Assembly (NCBI GenBank): GCA_964356285.1
Contig: CAYHGI010000002.1
Span: 1 to 51,514 of the forward strand
Length of the DNA: 51,514 bases
Origin: an uncultured Candidatus Saccharibacteria bacterium
GTDB taxonomy: Bacteria; Patescibacteriota; Minisyncoccia; Phycocordibacterales; UBA9973
Reading direction: 5' to 3'
Below, one piece after another: positions 23,126-46,592 of the stretch (position 1 is its first letter; every line of letters begins with the position of its first letter). The position numbers and the translations under genes were made by a program. The notes under the pieces were generated by a model. The model did not search any database. It was given only the letters and a program-made list of their open reading frames with translations, and had not been told where the DNA came from.

Positions 23126-23524
23126 ATGCAAATAAATTTACAGGGTAAAAATATCGAGCTGACGGAGAATGTTAAGAATTATGTTTCTAAAAGAGTGACC
23201 AATTTAGGCAAATTGCTTTCCAGAATTGAGGAAGAGGGAGGGAAAGTGATGGTAAATATGGATTTGAGTAGATCCACCCAACACCACAAATCGGGCGAAA
23301 TTTTTCACGCGGATTGTTTAGTTAAAATAGACGGAAAAGAATTTTATTCCAGCGCCGACAAGGAGGATTTGTATCAAGCGATAGATACCATCAAAGATAG
23401 TCTTTACAATGAAATAAATAAAAACAAAGACCGTTCACAGACTCTCCTGTATCGCGGCGCTCGCAGTATCAAAAAAATGCTGAAAGGACTTTCTAAAAGG
23501 AATCCTTTCACTTCCAAATACTAA
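23126..23524 (+). CDS. hpf: ribosome hibernation promoting factor / RaiA family
   Basis: 'MQINLQGKNIELTENVKNYVSKRV' is a typical HPF N-terminus. The stop overlaps the convergent fmt stop (23521-23524). Confidence 0.8.
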   Translation: MQINLQGKNIELTENVKNYVSKRVTNLGKLLSRIEEEGGKVMVNMDLSRSTQHHKSGEIFHADCLVKIDGKEFYSSADKEDLYQAIDTIKDSLYNEINKNKDRSQTLLYRGARSIKKMLKGLSKRNPFTSKY

Positions 23525-24492
23525 TCTACGCTATAGCGTAGATTGAAATCTTTCCAGTCAATCTCTTTCTTGCTTTCTGGGAGGACTTTTTTGATTGCAA
23601 ACTGGTTGTTTGCAAGTTCTGCATCGGTGATAATGATTCTTTTTGTTTGAAACCCGCCTTCGCCAAGACTTCGTCGGGCAAGGAAAAAAGTTCTGGGCCA
23701 AGAGGCGTAAGCTCTGAATTTGTTGTAATTTTTTACAGCATTATCAGTTAAATCTATCAATCCATCTTCTTTTTTTATTTTCTTGCAGTAAGTGGCTTTT
23801 TTTTCATCTTGTTCTTCTCCCCCTGCGAAGGGGGAGTGGCCGAAGGCCGAGGGGGTCTGTAATAATTTCACCAAAAGATCCCCGCCTATTTTTACCAGAC
23901 GCTTGCGTAAGTCCGGTGTTTTTTCGTCTGGCAAAATGGAAACTTTTTCTTGCGCGATAATCGGTCCGGAATCCAATTCGAACTTCATTTTTTGAATAGT
24001 AACGCCTGTTTCACTATCGCCATTTAATATTGCCGATTCGACTGGCGAAGCTCCGCGATATTTGGGCAGGAGGGAATAATGGATATTGAGCGAACCCAGC
24101 TTCGGCATGTTCAGTATCTCTTCCGGTATTATTTTTCCGTAAGCGACAACCAAAAAGAAATCTGGAATATTTTGCTCACCACGAAAATTTTCTGCTGAAA
24201 ATTTTCTCTGTCCGTCGTCGCCACTCCTCCCAAGGGTTCTCAAAACATCCCAGATTTCTTTTTGGTCTAGTTTTTCTGGCTTCAGGCAAGGGATGCTGTT
24301 TTTTTCCGCAAAGAGAGAAGTCGGGGAGGCTTGCATGCGCATTCCTCTGCCTTTCTTAGCATCGGGAGATGTTACTATTAAAGACGGCAAAAATCCGTTT
24401 TTTTTCAAAATTTCAAGCGTTTCGCTTGCCACCTCTGGCGTTCCCCAAAATACAAAATTTATTTTATTCATAAAGCTTTCAGCTAAAAGCAA
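23521..24492 (-). CDS. fmt: methionyl-tRNA formyltransferase
   Basis: 'FWGTPEVASETL' and 'HYSLLPKYRGASPVESAI'. Contains extra segments (see findings). Confidence 0.85.
   Translation of the reverse strand: MLLAESFMNKINFVFWGTPEVASETLEILKKNGFLPSLIVTSPDAKKGRGMRMQASPTSLFAEKNSIPCLKPEKLDQKEIWDVLRTLGRSGDDGQRKFSAENFRGEQNIPDFFLVVAYGKIIPEEILNMPKLGSLNIHYSLLPKYRGASPVESAILNGDSETGVTIQKMKFELDSGPIIAQEKVSILPDEKTPDLRKRLVKIGGDLLVKLLQTPSAFGHSPFAGGEEQDEKKATYCKKIKKEDGLIDLTDNAVKNYNKFRAYASWPRTFFLARRSLGEGGFQTKRIIITDAELANNQFAIKKVLPESKKEIDWKDFNLRYSVD
23815..23860. repeat. GC-rich double-hairpin segment inside fmt
   Basis: CTCCCCC-TGCGAA-GGGGGAG (23817-23836) and GGCC-GAA-GGCC (23838-23848). Encodes 'TPSAFGHSPFAGGEE' on the minus strand. 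Confidence 0.55.
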
Positions 24493-32523: not shown

Positions 32524-32524
32524 T

Positions 32525-32545
32525 GAGCAAGGGTAGTCCTTGCTC
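32525..32545. repeat. 21-nt perfect palindrome GAGCAAGG-GTAGT-CCTTGCTC, intergenic copy
   Basis: Identical to 45302-45322 and to the reverse complement of 41890-41910. It starts 2 nt after the stop at 32523. Confidence 0.9.
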
Positions 32546-32584
32546 AAGTAATAGGAAAACATCTGTAAAATGGTATAATGTGGT

Positions 32585-41677: not shown

Positions 41678-42570
41678 TTAAAATTTTTTTTACGAAAGAT
41701 TGGGTGGATTATGAGCTTCTGGATACAGGCGAAGGGGAGAAGCTCGAGCGGTTCGGGCCATACACTTTTGTTCGGCCATATGAAGATGCTGTATGGAAAA
41801 AAATGTTGCCGGAAAGCGAGTGGGAAAAAGCCGACGGCAAATTTTGGAGTTCTAAGGTGGGTTCAAAAGCAGGCTGGAAAATGAAACATGAGCAAGGACT
41901 ACCCTTGCTCAAAAAATGGGAGATGCAGTATAAAGGCATCAAGTTTTTTGCTTCTCCGACCCCTTTTCGCCACCTTTCATTTTTCCCTGAGCAAGCGAGC
42001 CACTGGGACTTTATCGAGACCCAAATCAAGAAAGCTTATCGAAAGGACCGTCCTTTGCAATTCTTAAATCTTTTTGGCTATACCGGAGTGGCTAGCCTTT
42101 TTGCTTTGCGCGCTGGCGCCGAAGTTACGCATCTGGATGCTTCCAAACAAACTCTTGCTTGGGCAAAAGAAAATCAAAAACTAAATGCTGAGCTAGCTGA
42201 AGCACCGATGCGCGTGATTGAAGATGATGCTCTAAAATTTTTGGAACGGGAAGCCAAGAGAGGAAATAAATATGACGCTATTATTATGGACCCGCCGAAA
42301 TTCGGCCGGGGACCAAGGGGGGAGGTTTGGAAGATTGAAGAAATGCTGCCGAAACTTCTTGCTTGCGTGCGGAAAGTTTTAAGCGATAAACCACTTTTTG
42401 TTATTTTGACTTCATATAGCATAGACTCTTCCTCGCTTTCTTTGGGCTATGCGCTTGAAGAGATGATGAAAGACTTTAGTGGTAATACTGAAGCTGGAGA
42501 GTTGTGCGCATTAGAAAAGTCCAATAGTCGTGTTATTCCACTTGCCAACACGGCCGTTTGGAGTATATAA
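41674..42570 (+). CDS. class I SAM-dependent (rRNA large-subunit type) methyltransferase
   Basis: 'LNLFGYTGVASLFA' and 'YDAIIMDPPKFGRG'. The ATG overlaps the ychF stop (ATGA). Confidence 0.75.
   Translation: MIKIFFTKDWVDYELLDTGEGEKLERFGPYTFVRPYEDAVWKKMLPESEWEKADGKFWSSKVGSKAGWKMKHEQGLPLLKKWEMQYKGIKFFASPTPFRHLSFFPEQASHWDFIETQIKKAYRKDRPLQFLNLFGYTGVASLFALRAGAEVTHLDASKQTLAWAKENQKLNAELAEAPMRVIEDDALKFLEREAKRGNKYDAIIMDPPKFGRGPRGEVWKIEEMLPKLLACVRKVLSDKPLFVILTSYSIDSSSLSLGYALEEMMKDFSGNTEAGELCALEKSNSRVIPLANTAVWSI
41890..41910. repeat. 21-nt perfect palindrome (reverse-complement orientation) in-frame inside the methyltransferase CDS
   Basis: GAGCAAGGACTACCCTTGCTC encodes 'EQGLPLL'. Confidence 0.9.
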
Positions 42571-43580: not shown

Positions 43581-46500
43581 ATGCGAGAATACGACCATAA
43601 AAAAATTGAGAAAAAATGGCAGAATGAATGGAAGAAAAAAGGAACTTATCACGCAAAAAATTTCTCCAAAAAATCGAAATTTTACAGTTTGATCGAGTTT
43701 CCGTATCCTTCCGGTGACGGATTGCATGTCGGGCATATTCGCAGCAACACAGCGATGGATATAATTTCACGAAAACGAAGAATGGAAGGTTTTAATGTCC
43801 TCTATCCGATCGGCTGGGATGCTTTTGGTCTGCCGACGGAAAATTACGCCATCAAGACGGGTATCCATCCGATAAAAGTGACCAAAGATAATACCGACAT
43901 TTTTAGACGCCAGCTCAAAGCGATGGGTTTTTCTTTTGATTGGTCGCGGGAGATAAACACAACTGATCCGAAGTATTATAAGTGGACCCAGTGGATATTT
44001 TTGCAGTTTTTGAAAAAAGGCTTAGCTTATAAGGCTAAAATGACAATAAATTGGTGTCCAAAAGACAAGATCGGTCTGGCTAATGAAGAAGTAATTGATG
44101 GGAAATGCGAAAGATGCGGTACGGCAGTGGAAAAAAGAGAGAAAGAGCAATGGATGTTAGCCATCACTAAATATGCCGACAGGCTGTACAAAGATCTCGA
44201 CGATGTAGACTATCTGCCGCAGATAAAACTCGGGCAAAGGAATTGGATAGGAAAGAGCGAAGGAGCTCTAATAAATTTTCAATTATCAATTTCTAATTTT
44301 CAAAAAAATAAAATAGTTTCCGCTAGGAAAGTCCTAGCGGAGTATGTGGAGGTATTTACTACCCGTCCGGATACGATTTTCGGGGTAACTTTTCTTGCTG
44401 TTGCTCCTCTCGTTGCTAAAAAATTAACGGGCAAAGATTTCGGCATAAAAGTAGATATTGATCGAGAAAATAAAGAAAAAGTGGGTATAGATACCGGACT
44501 AAAAGCAAAAAATCCGGCAAACGGGGAGATGGTGCCTGTATTTGTGGTTAATTATGTATCTGCAGAATATGGCACCGGCGCAATTATGGGTGTGCCAGCG
44601 CATGACGAGCGGGATTTTGAGTTTGCTAAGAAATATGGGCTAGAAATAAAAAATGTTATTGAACCGGTATTTACTGATGAACCAAAAGCCGGAATACCTT
44701 TTATAGACAGGAATGCGATACATGCAATTTTGAAGCATTGGTCGGAAGAAAAGTATTTAGTCCTGCTTTGGAAAAAAGTTGACTGGGTTACATTTGTAAC
44801 AGGTGGGGTAGAAAGAGGAGAAAATCCATTACAGGCTGCCATAAGAGAAATTAAGGAAGAAACAGGATATTTAAACCTGAAGTTAAAAAAAGAATTGCCT
44901 GCATCTCATAGTAAATTTTATCATATTCCCAAAAAAGAGAATCGATTTGCTCATTTTTCCAATTTTTATTTCGAATTAGAAAACGGGCAACAAGAAGAAT
45001 TATCAGAAGATGAAAAAAGCAATCATGAATTAAAATGGGTTTCTCCGGATGAACTTGAAAAAATTATGAAAATTAAAGGGGCACTTCGGGACTGGAAAGT
45101 TTTAAGGGGTAAAGAAGAGGTTTATATAGGTGAAGGACTTTTAACTAATTCAAGCCAATTCGACGGTATGGATTCGGAAAAAGCTAAAAAAGAAATCACA
45201 AAGTTTGTCGGCGGAAAGGAAAAAGTAACTTTCAAGCTCCGTGACTGGATATTTTCCAGGCAGAGATATTGGGGCGAGCCGATACCAGTCGTGTATTGTC
45301 TGAGCAAGGGTAGTCCTTGCTCAAATACATGGGTGCCGGTGCCGGAAAAAGATTTGCCGGTGGAATTGCCCAAAGTTAAAAATTACCAGCCGACGGAAAG
45401 TGGGGAATCGCCACTGGCTAATATCTCAAAGTGGGTCAATGTTAAATGTCCGAAATGCAAAGGGCCAGCTAAAAGGGAAACTGATACCATGCCGAATTGG
45501 GCTGGCTCTAGTTGGTATTATCTGCGTTACACTGATCCTAAAAATAGTAAGGAGTTTGCCAGCAAGAAAAATTTGAAGTACTGGCTGACCTCACCCCGTC
45601 CCTCTCCCAAGGAGAGGGCTCCTTCCCTTTTGGGGAAGGCGGAGGAAGAGATGGGTGGGGTCGACTGGTACAACGGAGGCAATGAGCACACCACCTTGCA
45701 TCTTTTATATTCTCGTTTCTGGCATAAATTTTTATATGATTTGAAATTAGTACCGACTTCAGAGCCATATATGAAGCGCACTTCGCATGGGATGATTTTG
45801 GGCGAAGGAGGAGTCAAAATGTCAAAATCGCTTGGCAATGTTATTAATCCAGACGATATTGTGAAAACATACGGCGCAGACACACTTCGTATTTATGAAA
45901 TGTTTATGGGGCCCTTTGACCAATCTGTCGCTTGGTCCACAGAAAGTATTATTGGGGCGAGGAGGTTTATTGAACGTGTCTGGAATCTACAATATAAAAT
46001 CTCACCCCAGCCCTCTCCTTTCAAGAGAGAGGGAAGCCCTTTCTCCTTTCAGGGGAAGGCGGGGGATGAGGTTGAGAGGTTGATGCACCAAACGATAAAA
46101 AAAGCAACAGAGGACATTGAGGCGATGAAATTCAACACAGCCATTTCGACACTTATGATTTTTGTGAATGAAGTTGGTAAGCTTGATTCTATCTCACGAG
46201 ATGTTTATAAAAAATTCCTCAAACTTCTCTCGCCCTTTGCGCCACATATCGCGGAAGAATTATGGCAAAATTTAACCTCACCCCGACCCTCTCCAAAAGA
46301 GAGGGGGAAATTCAAGGTCTTCCCCTTTGGGGGAGGAGCGGAGGAAGTGAGAAGCATTCATCTTTCCAATTGGCCGAAGTGGGACGAAAGCCTGATTCAA
46401 GATGAAGAAATAAAAATTGCGGTGCAGGTAAACGGCAAAGTAAGGACGGAAATAATTATCCAGACAGACGAGCAGGAAGAAATTGTCAAACAAAAAGCTT

Positions 46501-46592
46501 TAAGAAACAAGACTATTATTAAATATATCGGGAATAAAATTCCCCTAAAAGCGATTTACGTGAAAAATAGACTTATCAACATAGTTATTTAG
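43581..46592 (+). CDS. leuS: leucine--tRNA ligase carrying multiple in-frame insertions, including a Nudix domain
   Basis: 'HVGH', 'TTRPDT', 'GTGAIMGVPAHDERDFEFA', 'RDWIFSRQRYWGEPIP' and 'KMSKS'. Start set to the ATG at 43581. 1003 aa. Confidence 0.9.
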   Translation: MREYDHKKIEKKWQNEWKKKGTYHAKNFSKKSKFYSLIEFPYPSGDGLHVGHIRSNTAMDIISRKRRMEGFNVLYPIGWDAFGLPTENYAIKTGIHPIKVTKDNTDIFRRQLKAMGFSFDWSREINTTDPKYYKWTQWIFLQFLKKGLAYKAKMTINWCPKDKIGLANEEVIDGKCERCGTAVEKREKEQWMLAITKYADRLYKDLDDVDYLPQIKLGQRNWIGKSEGALINFQLSISNFQKNKIVSARKVLAEYVEVFTTRPDTIFGVTFLAVAPLVAKKLTGKDFGIKVDIDRENKEKVGIDTGLKAKNPANGEMVPVFVVNYVSAEYGTGAIMGVPAHDERDFEFAKKYGLEIKNVIEPVFTDEPKAGIPFIDRNAIHAILKHWSEEKYLVLLWKKVDWVTFVTGGVERGENPLQAAIREIKEETGYLNLKLKKELPASHSKFYHIPKKENRFAHFSNFYFELENGQQEELSEDEKSNHELKWVSPDELEKIMKIKGALRDWKVLRGKEEVYIGEGLLTNSSQFDGMDSEKAKKEITKFVGGKEKVTFKLRDWIFSRQRYWGEPIPVVYCLSKGSPCSNTWVPVPEKDLPVELPKVKNYQPTESGESPLANISKWVNVKCPKCKGPAKRETDTMPNWAGSSWYYLRYTDPKNSKEFASKKNLKYWLTSPRPSPKERAPSLLGKAEEEMGGVDWYNGGNEHTTLHLLYSRFWHKFLYDLKLVPTSEPYMKRTSHGMILGEGGVKMSKSLGNVINPDDIVKTYGADTLRIYEMFMGPFDQSVAWSTESIIGARRFIERVWNLQYKISPQPSPFKREGSPFSFQGKAGDEVERLMHQTIKKATEDIEAMKFNTAISTLMIFVNEVGKLDSISRDVYKKFLKLLSPFAPHIAEELWQNLTSPRPSPKERGKFKVFPFGGGAEEVRSIHLSNWPKWDESLIQDEEIKIAVQVNGKVRTEIIIQTDEQEEIVKQKALRNKTIIKYIGNKIPLKAIYVKNRLINIVI
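44320..44340. repeat. 21-nt 8-5-8 palindrome CCGCTAGG-AAAGT-CCTAGCGG in-frame in leuS
   Basis: Same architecture and similar core (AGG-N5-CCT) as the GAGCAAGG palindrome. It lies in an extra segment before 'TTRPDT'. Confidence 0.7.
45302..45322. repeat. 21-nt perfect palindrome GAGCAAGG-GTAGT-CCTTGCTC in-frame in leuS
   Basis: Encodes part of 'CLSKGSPCSN'. Deleting the 21 nt leaves the frame intact (..C L N T W..). Confidence 0.9.
45588..45659 (+). repeat. 72-nt GC-rich palindromic element, copy 1, in-frame in leuS
   Basis: TCACCCCGTCCCTCTCC-CAA-GGAGAGGG...CCTTCCC-TTTT-GGGGAAGG...GGAGGAAG. Encodes TSPRPSPKERAPSLLGKAEEEMGG. Confidence 0.8.
46002..46073 (+). repeat. 72-nt GC-rich palindromic element, copy 2, in-frame in leuS
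   Basis: TCACCCCAGCCCTCTCC...GAGAGGG...GGGGAAGGCGGGGGATGAGG. Encodes SPQPSPFKREGSPFSFQGKAGDEV. Confidence 0.8.
46275..46346 (+). repeat. 72-nt GC-rich palindromic element, copy 3, in-frame in leuS
   Basis: ACCTCACCCCGACCCTCTCC-AAAA-GAGAGGG...CTTCCCC-TTTG-GGGGAGG..GCGGAGGAA. Encodes TSPRPSPKERGKFKVFPFGGGAEE. Confidence 0.8.

Follow-up and report, generated by a model that had tools for sequence, protein, structure and literature searches.

The leucyl-tRNA synthetase (LeuRS) gene leuS of an uncultured Candidatus Saccharibacteria bacterium carries three short palindromic segments that are very probably decaying, translated copies of a dispersed, non-autonomous repeat of ~72–80 bp—a repeat that contains a triplex motif and resembles a miniature inverted-repeat transposable element (MITE). 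The gene lies in contig CAYHGI010000002.1 (assembly GCA_964356285.1), of which we analyzed positions 1 to 51,514, hereafter the window. The original prediction had read the segments as selfish palindromic DNA in a coding sequence; a family of 75 distinct sites, about half of them in-frame in unrelated housekeeping genes, bears this out. Judged by its sequence, the left module of the leuS elements (CCTCACCCC-NN-CCCTCTCC-loop-GGAGAGGG) is the BoxC/PIT/TMECO intrastrand-triplex motif and not an invention specific to the Candidate Phyla Radiation (CPR). Genes for DUF559 proteins are bracketed by triplex modules, so the repeats may be MITE-like derivatives of DUF559 selfish elements.

Three Repeat Copies Share One Reading Frame of leuS

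The 51.5-kb window contains exactly three matches to a 17-nt core, TCACCCCNNCCCTCTCC (45591, 46002, and 46278), always on the plus strand and always within leuS, against a chance expectation of 0.01. The three copies around it share one orientation and one frame, as had been predicted, and read (T/I)SP(R/Q)PSP...GKA/GGA..E(E/V); across the element junctions the predicted LeuRS peptides are YWLTSPRPSPK, ISPQPSPFK, and VFPFGGGAEEVR. Their GC contents of 64%, 58%, and 58% stand far above the 39% of the remaining gene, also in line with the prediction. Three repeated segments are present as described, but not at exactly 72 nt each: Refined boundaries give 75–79 nt (Table 1). Every leuS copy folds into two hairpins closed by an outer stem, and the hairpins of copies 1 and 3 are visibly decayed. 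The nhmmer E-values in Table 1 come from a profile hidden Markov model (HMM) trained on metagenomic copies only and hence independent of the window.

Table 1. Coordinates of leuS, its repeat copies, and the fmt variant in the window
Feature	Position	Strand	Description
leuS (leucyl-tRNA synthetase, 1003 aa, NUDIX insertion)	43581..46592	+	host gene of three elements
Element copy 1 (right half decayed)	45587..45662	+	between KYW and VDWYNGGNEH; peptide LTSPRPSPKERAPSLLGKAEEEMGG; nhmmer E = 2e-10
Copy 1 left triplex module	45588..45618	+	Y1 CCTCACCCC, GT, Y2 CCCTCTCC, CAA, R GGAGAGGG
Copy 1 second hairpin	45621..45639	+	CCTTCCC-TTTTG-GGGAAGG
Element copy 2 (nearest family consensus; right end GGGGAAGGCGGGGGATGAGGTT)	45999..46073	+	variable linker before ERLMHQT; peptide ISPQPSPFKREGSPFSFQGKAGDEV; nhmmer E = 4e-19
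Element copy 3 (decayed)	46274..46352	+	ELWQNL / SIHLS, junction of anticodon-binding and C-terminal domains; peptide TSPRPSPKERGKFKVFPFGGGAEEVR; nhmmer E = 2e-8
Triplex-motif variant CTCCCCCT-GCGA-AGGGGGAG-T-GGCCGAAGGCC-GAGGGGG	23815..23862	+	in-frame in minus-strand fmt; peptide QTPSAFGHSPFAGGEEQ

In a 66-sequence LeuRS alignment, most orthologs have a gap or some short unrelated peptide at each of the three sites, and the distant LeuRS of E. coli, Thermus, and Mycoplasma hold no homologous peptides there. Copy 1 interrupts a conserved motif, as first proposed: The insert-free orthologs examined at the DNA level have KYW-TP-VDWYNGGNEH, and Mycoplasma and Thermus LeuRS read (W)LPVD.YIGG.EH. 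Site 1 is empty (KYW-TP-VDWY, read from the DNA) in orthologs P0008, P0043, and P0044; elsewhere it is occupied by a short form of the same element (P0039), a diverged two-hairpin form (P0119), or a different palindrome (P0003). At site 2, the same element with the same right junction is found in the window, P0039, P0043, and L160, and site 3 bears triplex-type elements of differing stem sequence in four lineages, including P0039, P0043, and P0044. The inserts are missing from most orthologs, and a few related Nomurabacteria share the element at the same sites. One candidate for an empty-site allele—the 970-aa P0127 from the P0043 cluster—was rejected as merely N-terminally truncated. A neighbor-joining tree of the 66 sequences is star-like and poorly resolved, and orthologs with occupied sites do not group in it.

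When the protein is aligned to solved LeuRS structures, site 1 comes immediately before the PVD.YIGG.EH strand, site 2 lies in a variable linker before the LH.T.KK helix, and site 3 separates the anticodon-binding and C-terminal domains. The AlphaFold LeuRS model is mediocre (mean predicted local distance difference test score 71) and was used solely for the structural mapping that the original prediction had called for; the inserts fall in coil or low-confidence segments or in linkers.

An identical 1003-aa protein is on record in Hainich groundwater contigs, and the best homologs are all from Paceibacteria/Nomurabacteria and all have the NUDIX insert. The exact product of a longer open reading frame (ORF) starting at TTG is absent from the records; the ATG at 43581 is the true start codon. 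In all listed homologs the NUDIX domain follows the editing domain (window ~44800–45150, aa ~405–520), and inserts of alpha/beta-hydrolase or DUF559/MTES_1575 type lengthen some orthologs further, to as much as 1722 aa. A second palindrome family, TGAGCAAGG-N5-CCTTGCTCA, occurs at 45301–45323 in leuS, at 41889–41911 in an rsmD-like gene, and at 32524–32546 between genes; its leuS copy lies between the two Cys of a CxxC knuckle, where other orthologs have other odd inserts.

A Dispersed Family in Patescibacteria-Like Genomes

Scanning metagenomes with the 22-mer of the right end recovered 96 copies in 91 low-GC loci (median 41% GC) on Nomurabacteria-like contigs, representing 75 unique sites. 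Their consensus is AACCTCACCCC-AA-CCCTCTCC-TGAA-AGGAGAGGG-(GGAATTY)AGC-YCCTTCCCC-TTTC-AGGGGAAGG-C-GGGGGATGAGGTT, with length classes of ~72 and ~79 nt and terminal inverted repeats of ~11 nt (ACCTCACCCC / GGGGaTGAGGT) around the two hairpins. Such terminal repeats, small size, and dispersal over 75 unique sites are features of MITEs.

Long ORFs span 39 of the 75 unique sites; the others are intergenic or at gene ends. Pfam-confirmed hosts are PurL, NusA, trigger factor, UvrA, UvrB (at two sites), UvrC, the CCA-adding enzyme, RNase R, Pol I, Dus, TGT, a PurN-PurD fusion, DHFR, LepA, and LeuRS. Since the host genomes are ~93% coding, many insertions hit genes; intergenic DNA is nonetheless strongly overrepresented among the copies, as expected if selection purges most in-gene insertions. 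A protein search with the concatenated peptides, which is insensitive, returned five matches, with DHFR (two orthologs), NusA, and a PurL-like protein among the hosts.

Beyond leuS, the HMM also matches lepA of this organism (L001), where two decayed copies lie just outside the window, and the organism of P0039 carries the same two-hairpin element twice in lepA and once more in an LTD/PKD protein. Together with the fmt variant (Table 1) and the many copies in relatives, these show that the leuS segments are not confined to one gene. The GGCCGAAGGCC-loop subtype of the fmt variant recurs in L023 and in the lepA of L124; whether the variant is a net insertion is uncertain because Fmt gains only 4 aa there relative to C. 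burnetii Fmt.

Several individual loci add observations of their own. The same fmt (minus strand, 23521–24492) contains an in-frame inverted repeat at 24149–24266, with 26-nt arms that are 92% complementary and a 66-nt spacer; the arms code for DQKEIWDVL and QNIPDFFLV, this part of the protein exceeds C. burnetii Fmt by 21 aa, and the structure resembles a fold-back duplication of native coding sequence. In L211 (8211–9908), an element lies exactly at the PurN-PurD fusion junction (aa 186–210); the linker by which the two genes were fused may have originated as an intergenic repeat. On a single contig (L148, Ga0209542_10004482), all four copies fall in genes for nucleotide-excision repair: two in uvrB and one each in uvrA and uvrC, the last lying within the GIY-YIG hairpin before YIGKA. 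At one small-ORF site shared by L156 and L162, the element has an in-frame TGA in L156 and is open in L162 after a 1-nt difference, which points to a pseudogene or a false ORF.

The Left Half Is a BoxC/PIT/TMECO-Type Module

TMECO repeats number 3610 copies in 262 proteobacterial genomes, are reported to be always intergenic in E. coli, and form a triplex that is stable in vitro on oligonucleotides and was not detected in vivo; they have neither promoter nor terminator activity and are associated with locus instability in E. coli (Holder et al. 2015, PMC4666352). Repeats of the CCCTCTCCC..GGGAGAGGG type number 100 in Enterobacter sp. 638. The left end, first hairpin, and mirror-repeat third strand of the leuS element together make up such a motif.

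The strict TMECO consensus of Holder et al. (2015), 5'-CCCTCNCCC N3-6 GGGNGAGGG N3 GGGNGAGGG-3', has no match on either strand of the window; the relaxed form CCCTCTC N4-11 GAGAGGG N1-5 GGGGTGAG is found in each of the three copies, on the minus strand. We also applied the ITxF definition of a G/C-rich class II triplex, in which a C-rich stem, a loop, a G-rich stem, a second loop, and a mirror G-rich third strand form G.G-C, A.A-T, or T.A-T triads (stems 6–15 nt, loops 1–6 nt, one mismatch allowed). On the minus-strand left module, copy 1 makes 8/8 Watson–Crick pairs and 8/8 purine-motif triads and copy 3 makes 7/8 pairs and 8/8 triads; copy 2 conforms only with an enlarged first loop. Copy 1 and the family consensus further show a BoxC-type inverted pair, with an outer stem (ACCTCACCCC / GGGGTGAGGT-like) around two hairpins. 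Two subfamilies are set apart by a coordinated change at one position of the third strand (Y1), the pyrimidine arm (Y2), and the purine arm (R): Of the copies, 45 have C/C/G there and 19 have T/T/A, and mixed states are nearly absent. The change probably occurred only once in evolution. The mirror third strand is also preserved in independent variants, namely those at leuS site 3 and in fmt.

A left-module scan with one genome per species found at least 134 copies at at least 120 loci. Among the matches listed, which span Proteobacteria, Verrucomicrobia, Chloroflexi, Planctomycetes, Cyanobacteria, Acidobacteria, and others, the module is exact over 23 specified bases across phyla and often has a mirrored partner downstream. 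Other phyla also have the composite palindrome of two modules (L030, L082, L023, and L094). Spurious long ORFs are common in GC-rich genomes, so that ORF-spanning copies there are uninformative and only low-GC cases were pursued; in low-GC genomes of other phyla, in-frame modules occur in HsdR, an MmeI-like enzyme, PriA, UDP-galactopyranose mutase, and a radical-SAM protein. Among IMG/VR viral contigs, 28 carry the generic left module (L221–L248; GC 0.37–0.65). The Patescibacteria-specific 22-mer of the right half occurs in no IMG/VR viral contig, and no phage vector was found for the subfamily. An Rfam scan of the region at permissive thresholds gave chance-level matches only, and a promoter/terminator scan of the region gave nothing above shuffles.

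In-Gene Copies Retain Frame, Orientation, and One Encoded Peptide

In-gene copies keep the host frame almost without exception: 39 do so, and at most 2 are possibly frame-breaking. Orientation is equally skewed, with 37 of the 39 in-CDS (coding sequence) copies running in the direction of the gene where ~56% would be expected from the open-frame count (P = 9e-8 counting copies; P ~8e-4 by hand calculation on roughly 21 independent sites). The right half of every plus-oriented copy is read as QGKAGDEV, although a second, Arg-rich frame (RGRRGMR) stays open; two frames are used for the left half, and the phase is regained through spacer length. This pattern of frame, orientation, and peptide fits selection on the encoded peptide and argues against removal at the RNA level.

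We picture a non-autonomous palindromic repeat that has multiplied in Nomurabacteria/Paceibacteria-like genomes, with many insertions landing in genes. The surviving copies there keep the frame, lack a stop, and specify a hydrophilic Pro/Ser/Gly/Glu-rich peptide (TSPQPSPERRG...FPFQGKAGDEV) in a loop or interdomain linker. As in-frame, stop-free segments at such positions, they would be read through and translated as extra loops, and the retained frames suggest that the encoded peptides are tolerated much as seems to hold for those of Rickettsia palindromic elements (RPEs).

Triplex Modules Bracket DUF559 Genes

Searches with jackhmmer identified 21 DUF559 ORFs in 1.87 Mb of analyzed loci, and Pfam assigned all eight tested to PF04480. 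Triplex modules flank these genes, with matching stem subtypes on both sides of each gene. With those near contig ends set aside, 17 DUF559 domains remain, and 12 of them are flanked on either side, no more than 150 nt away, by strict homopurine/homopyrimidine hairpins; in null windows from the same loci, the figure is 3.8%. All 13 LeuRS orthologs with a DUF559 insert, chosen without reference to the motif, have it flanked by NPSPALPEGEGE and ALSFGEGLGGV, and orthologs without the DUF559 ORF retain fused remnants of these flanks at the same site ("site 0"). The solo element of P0119 likewise equals a left flank (Y1-Y2) joined to a right flank (R-TTT-R').

The association extends beyond Patescibacteria. 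In Gastranaerophilales PriA, an in-frame DUF559 lies between the inverted modules [CCCTCACCCC-AA-CCCTCTCCC-GCAA-GGGGAGAGGG] and [CCCTCTCCCC-TTGC-GGGAGAGGG-CA-GGGTGAGGGG]. Nine of ten DUF559 genes retrieved by tblastn from plasmid and chromid records, again sampled independently of the motif, have flanking triplex modules whose stem sequences are particular to the lineage; the nine come from Sinorhizobium, Neisseria, Synechocystis, Sphingobium, Azospirillum, Picosynechococcus, Deinococcus, Pseudanabaena, and Sphingomonas. In E. coli K-12, the stop codon of the DUF559 gene ycjD, another case not picked for the motif, falls in the loop of such a hairpin, and TMECO no. 9 of Holder's table is ~170 nt downstream, a proximity with a chance expectation of ~0.005 (hand estimate). 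In-frame DUF559 versions keep the motif DF...E(L/V)DG..H, which we take to be the catalytic-type motif of the DUF559 nuclease fold. The Vsr/DUF559 clade includes a homing endonuclease, and the solved structure closest to DUF559 is 3hrl.

Three sets of side observations are also worth recording. Just upstream of ycjD (L249, 4760–4810) stands a perfect palindrome, CACCTCATTCTGACAA...TTGTCAGAATGAGGTG, with ends like the element's ACCTCA/TGAGGT termini, and a partial duplication of the ycjD 3' end lies between ycjD and TMECO no. 9. Several intergenic copies in L139, L157, L161, L182, L184, and L207 sit beside a conserved promoter-like flank of the neighboring gene, TTGCAAAA-N-TAGAAT; in several of these six loci a DUF559 gene begins beyond the element's opposite end, at a distance of ~20–30 nt and preceded by a TATAAT box. 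The window's own leuS has at site 0, before VFTTRPDT, a perfect 10-bp hairpin, TCCGCTAGGA-AAG-TCCTAGCGGA (44319–44341), that encodes SARKVLAE; other orthologs bear a DUF559 unit with the triplex motif, or its remnants, at this site.

The strong genomic association suggests that DUF559 mobilizes the repeats. A DUF559 nuclease would recognize the hairpin or triplex ends and drive copying, either by homing-like break repair or in a manner like that of repetitive extragenic palindromic (REP) sequences and their REP-associated tyrosine transposases (RAYTs). At a confidence falling slightly short of even, we take the most likely source of the repeats to be selfish units encoding a DUF559 (YcjD-like, Vsr-fold PD-(D/E)XK) endonuclease, of which they would be cognate termini or MITE-like deletion derivatives. 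Somewhat more tentative is the general form of this proposal, in which BoxC/PIT/TMECO repeats would be the ends and MITE-like derivatives of pan-bacterial DUF559 selfish elements able to live translated in essential genes, a lifestyle that would stand out most in gene-dense Patescibacteria.

Several points weigh against these readings. By jackhmmer, the window has no DUF559 gene, and leuS sites 1–3 were never seen with a DUF559 ORF. At ~110 aa, the DUF559 protein is small for a transposase. No target-site duplication is evident at the element flanks, close relatives provide no clean pair of empty and filled sites, and the site 1 junction is more complex than an insertion alone, since L...GG stands there in place of TP. 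With sites shared by orthologs that do not group in a poor tree, one ancient insertion and recurrent site-specific insertion look alike. The metagenome copies were chosen for an intact 22-mer and are thus biased toward young or conserved copies. Holder et al. neither detected a stable triplex in vivo nor linked the repeats to mobile elements (PMC4666352).

Alternative Explanations

The elements might instead be kept as working nucleic-acid structures, either as a DNA triplex or hairpin to which a host factor binds or as an mRNA structure or Shine–Dalgarno-like AAGGAG that paces translation at domain boundaries. The strong orientation bias relative to the gene, the three-way covariation that preserves triplex geometry, and the placement at linkers and directly before conserved motifs would all follow from such a role. 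Orthologous copies are also 83% identical where flanking coding DNA is 72% identical, with the element higher in 24 of 25 pairs; this comparison is biased by copy selection and is not relied on, and an unbiased leuS comparison gave little excess of element over flank identity. A structural role is harder to reconcile with the roughly half of copies that are intergenic, with the many that flank an endonuclease gene, with the decayed hairpins of window copies 1 and 3, and with the many orthologs—the majority—that function without the elements. The lack of promoter or terminator activity and of a triplex in vivo for TMECO (PMC4666352), and the chance-level local scan, point the same way, and we regard this explanation as unlikely.

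Two further accounts do without mobile-element copying or without a translated insert. Palindromes could arise de novo at fragile hot spots through fold-back or template-switch replication errors, and the same few LeuRS loops do bear many unrelated palindromic peptides across orthologs, fmt does hold an inverted duplication of its own coding sequence, and TMECO loci are unstable in E. coli (PMC4666352). Near-identical ~75-nt units with defined ends in unrelated genes and organisms, and a pan-bacterial module exact over 23 specified bases across phyla, make this origin very improbable for the family. The segments could also be intervening sequences removed after transcription or translation, as mini-introns or intein-like elements; the interrupted conserved motifs and the strong RNA folding of the segments would suit this. 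Frame and stops would be irrelevant to a spliced segment, yet 39 in-gene copies stay in frame and at most 2 may not, and just one of the two open right-half frames is used; the Rfam scan gave no match to an intron or ribozyme family, and ~25 aa is far too short for an intein, so that splicing is scarcely credible. Translated copies of a mobile repeat remain the reading that we favor.

Significance

The motif class and RPE-like behavior are each known; their combination in Patescibacteria and the association with DUF559 are absent from the literature searched, which contains no report of such elements in Patescibacteria—as the original prediction had supposed for the CPR—and no connection of DUF559 or YcjD with these repeats. 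Selfish DNA in protein-coding genes, best documented in Rickettsia, is thereby extended to Patescibacteria with a different class of repeat and no fewer than 16 housekeeping families confirmed by Pfam. The extension matters for annotation, for protein-length variation, and for the origin of new loops and linkers, of which the PurN-PurD linker may be one that came from a single copy. GC-rich, low-complexity "SPxPSP...GEG" peptides in CPR proteins derive from repeats and can mislead alignments and structure predictions.

The origin of BoxC/PIT/TMECO repeats has been unexplained since the 1990s, and the association ties this well-studied motif to a concrete candidate enzyme, making a ~30-year-old question testable. 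DUF559 is a very widespread domain of unknown function, represented in E. coli by YcjD. If the proposal is true, the domain gains a function, and the cross-phylum conservation of the repeats, the instability of their loci, and the homing-like recurrence at the same conserved sites would be explained.

Comparison with Known Repeat Systems

The original prediction likened the leuS segments to RPEs, and in behavior the likeness holds. Both families are palindromic, lie in-frame in many unrelated housekeeping genes with a conserved encoded peptide, appear compatible with protein folds, and inhabit small, gene-dense genomes (Ogata et al. 2000; PMC10969869). Kinship is neither supported by any evidence nor expected: RPEs are ~100–150 bp (~150 bp according to PMC10969869) and found only in Rickettsia, whereas the leuS element is ~75 bp, GC-rich, and of triplex type with a pan-bacterial core, so that size, composition, and host clade set the two apart, and its left half is the BoxC/PIT/TMECO motif.

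With the BoxC/PIT/TMECO repeats (Bachellier; Hoyne & Maher 2000; Holder et al. 2015, PMC4666352), the leuS element shares the C-rich stem, G-rich stem, and mirror G-rich third strand (GGGAGAGGG / GGGTGAGGG type), and the families have in common frequent inverted pairs, high cross-phylum conservation, and a GC-rich island. They differ in detail—8-nt stems and a loop of 2–3 nt in the leuS element, 9-nt stems and a 3-nt second loop in TMECO—and in setting: The leuS family is a two-hairpin unit of ~75 nt, about half in-frame in genes and associated with DUF559, whereas TMECO is intergenic and without a link to mobile elements.

REP/RAYT units (REPtrons) and MITEs are likewise short, palindromic, non-autonomous repeats with terminal inverted repeats; as in those systems, a small nuclease gene lies between inverted cognate repeats, and solo elements resemble internal-deletion derivatives. 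The flanked gene here encodes PF04480 DUF559 (PD-(D/E)XK, Vsr fold) and not an HUH Y1 or DDE transposase, with no search aimed at RAYT or DDE. REPs are extragenic, whereas the leuS family is often within genes, with no target-site duplication seen.

Vsr-like homing endonuclease genes (I-Bth0305I) offer a further parallel. DUF559 units differ from them in having no framing intron or intein—the insert is predicted to be simply translated—and any endonuclease or homing activity is putative. The nucleases belong to the same superfamily clade, both kinds of gene occupy the same conserved sites in essential genes across patchy lineages, and the full, degenerate, and empty states at LeuRS site 0 resemble those of homing elements.

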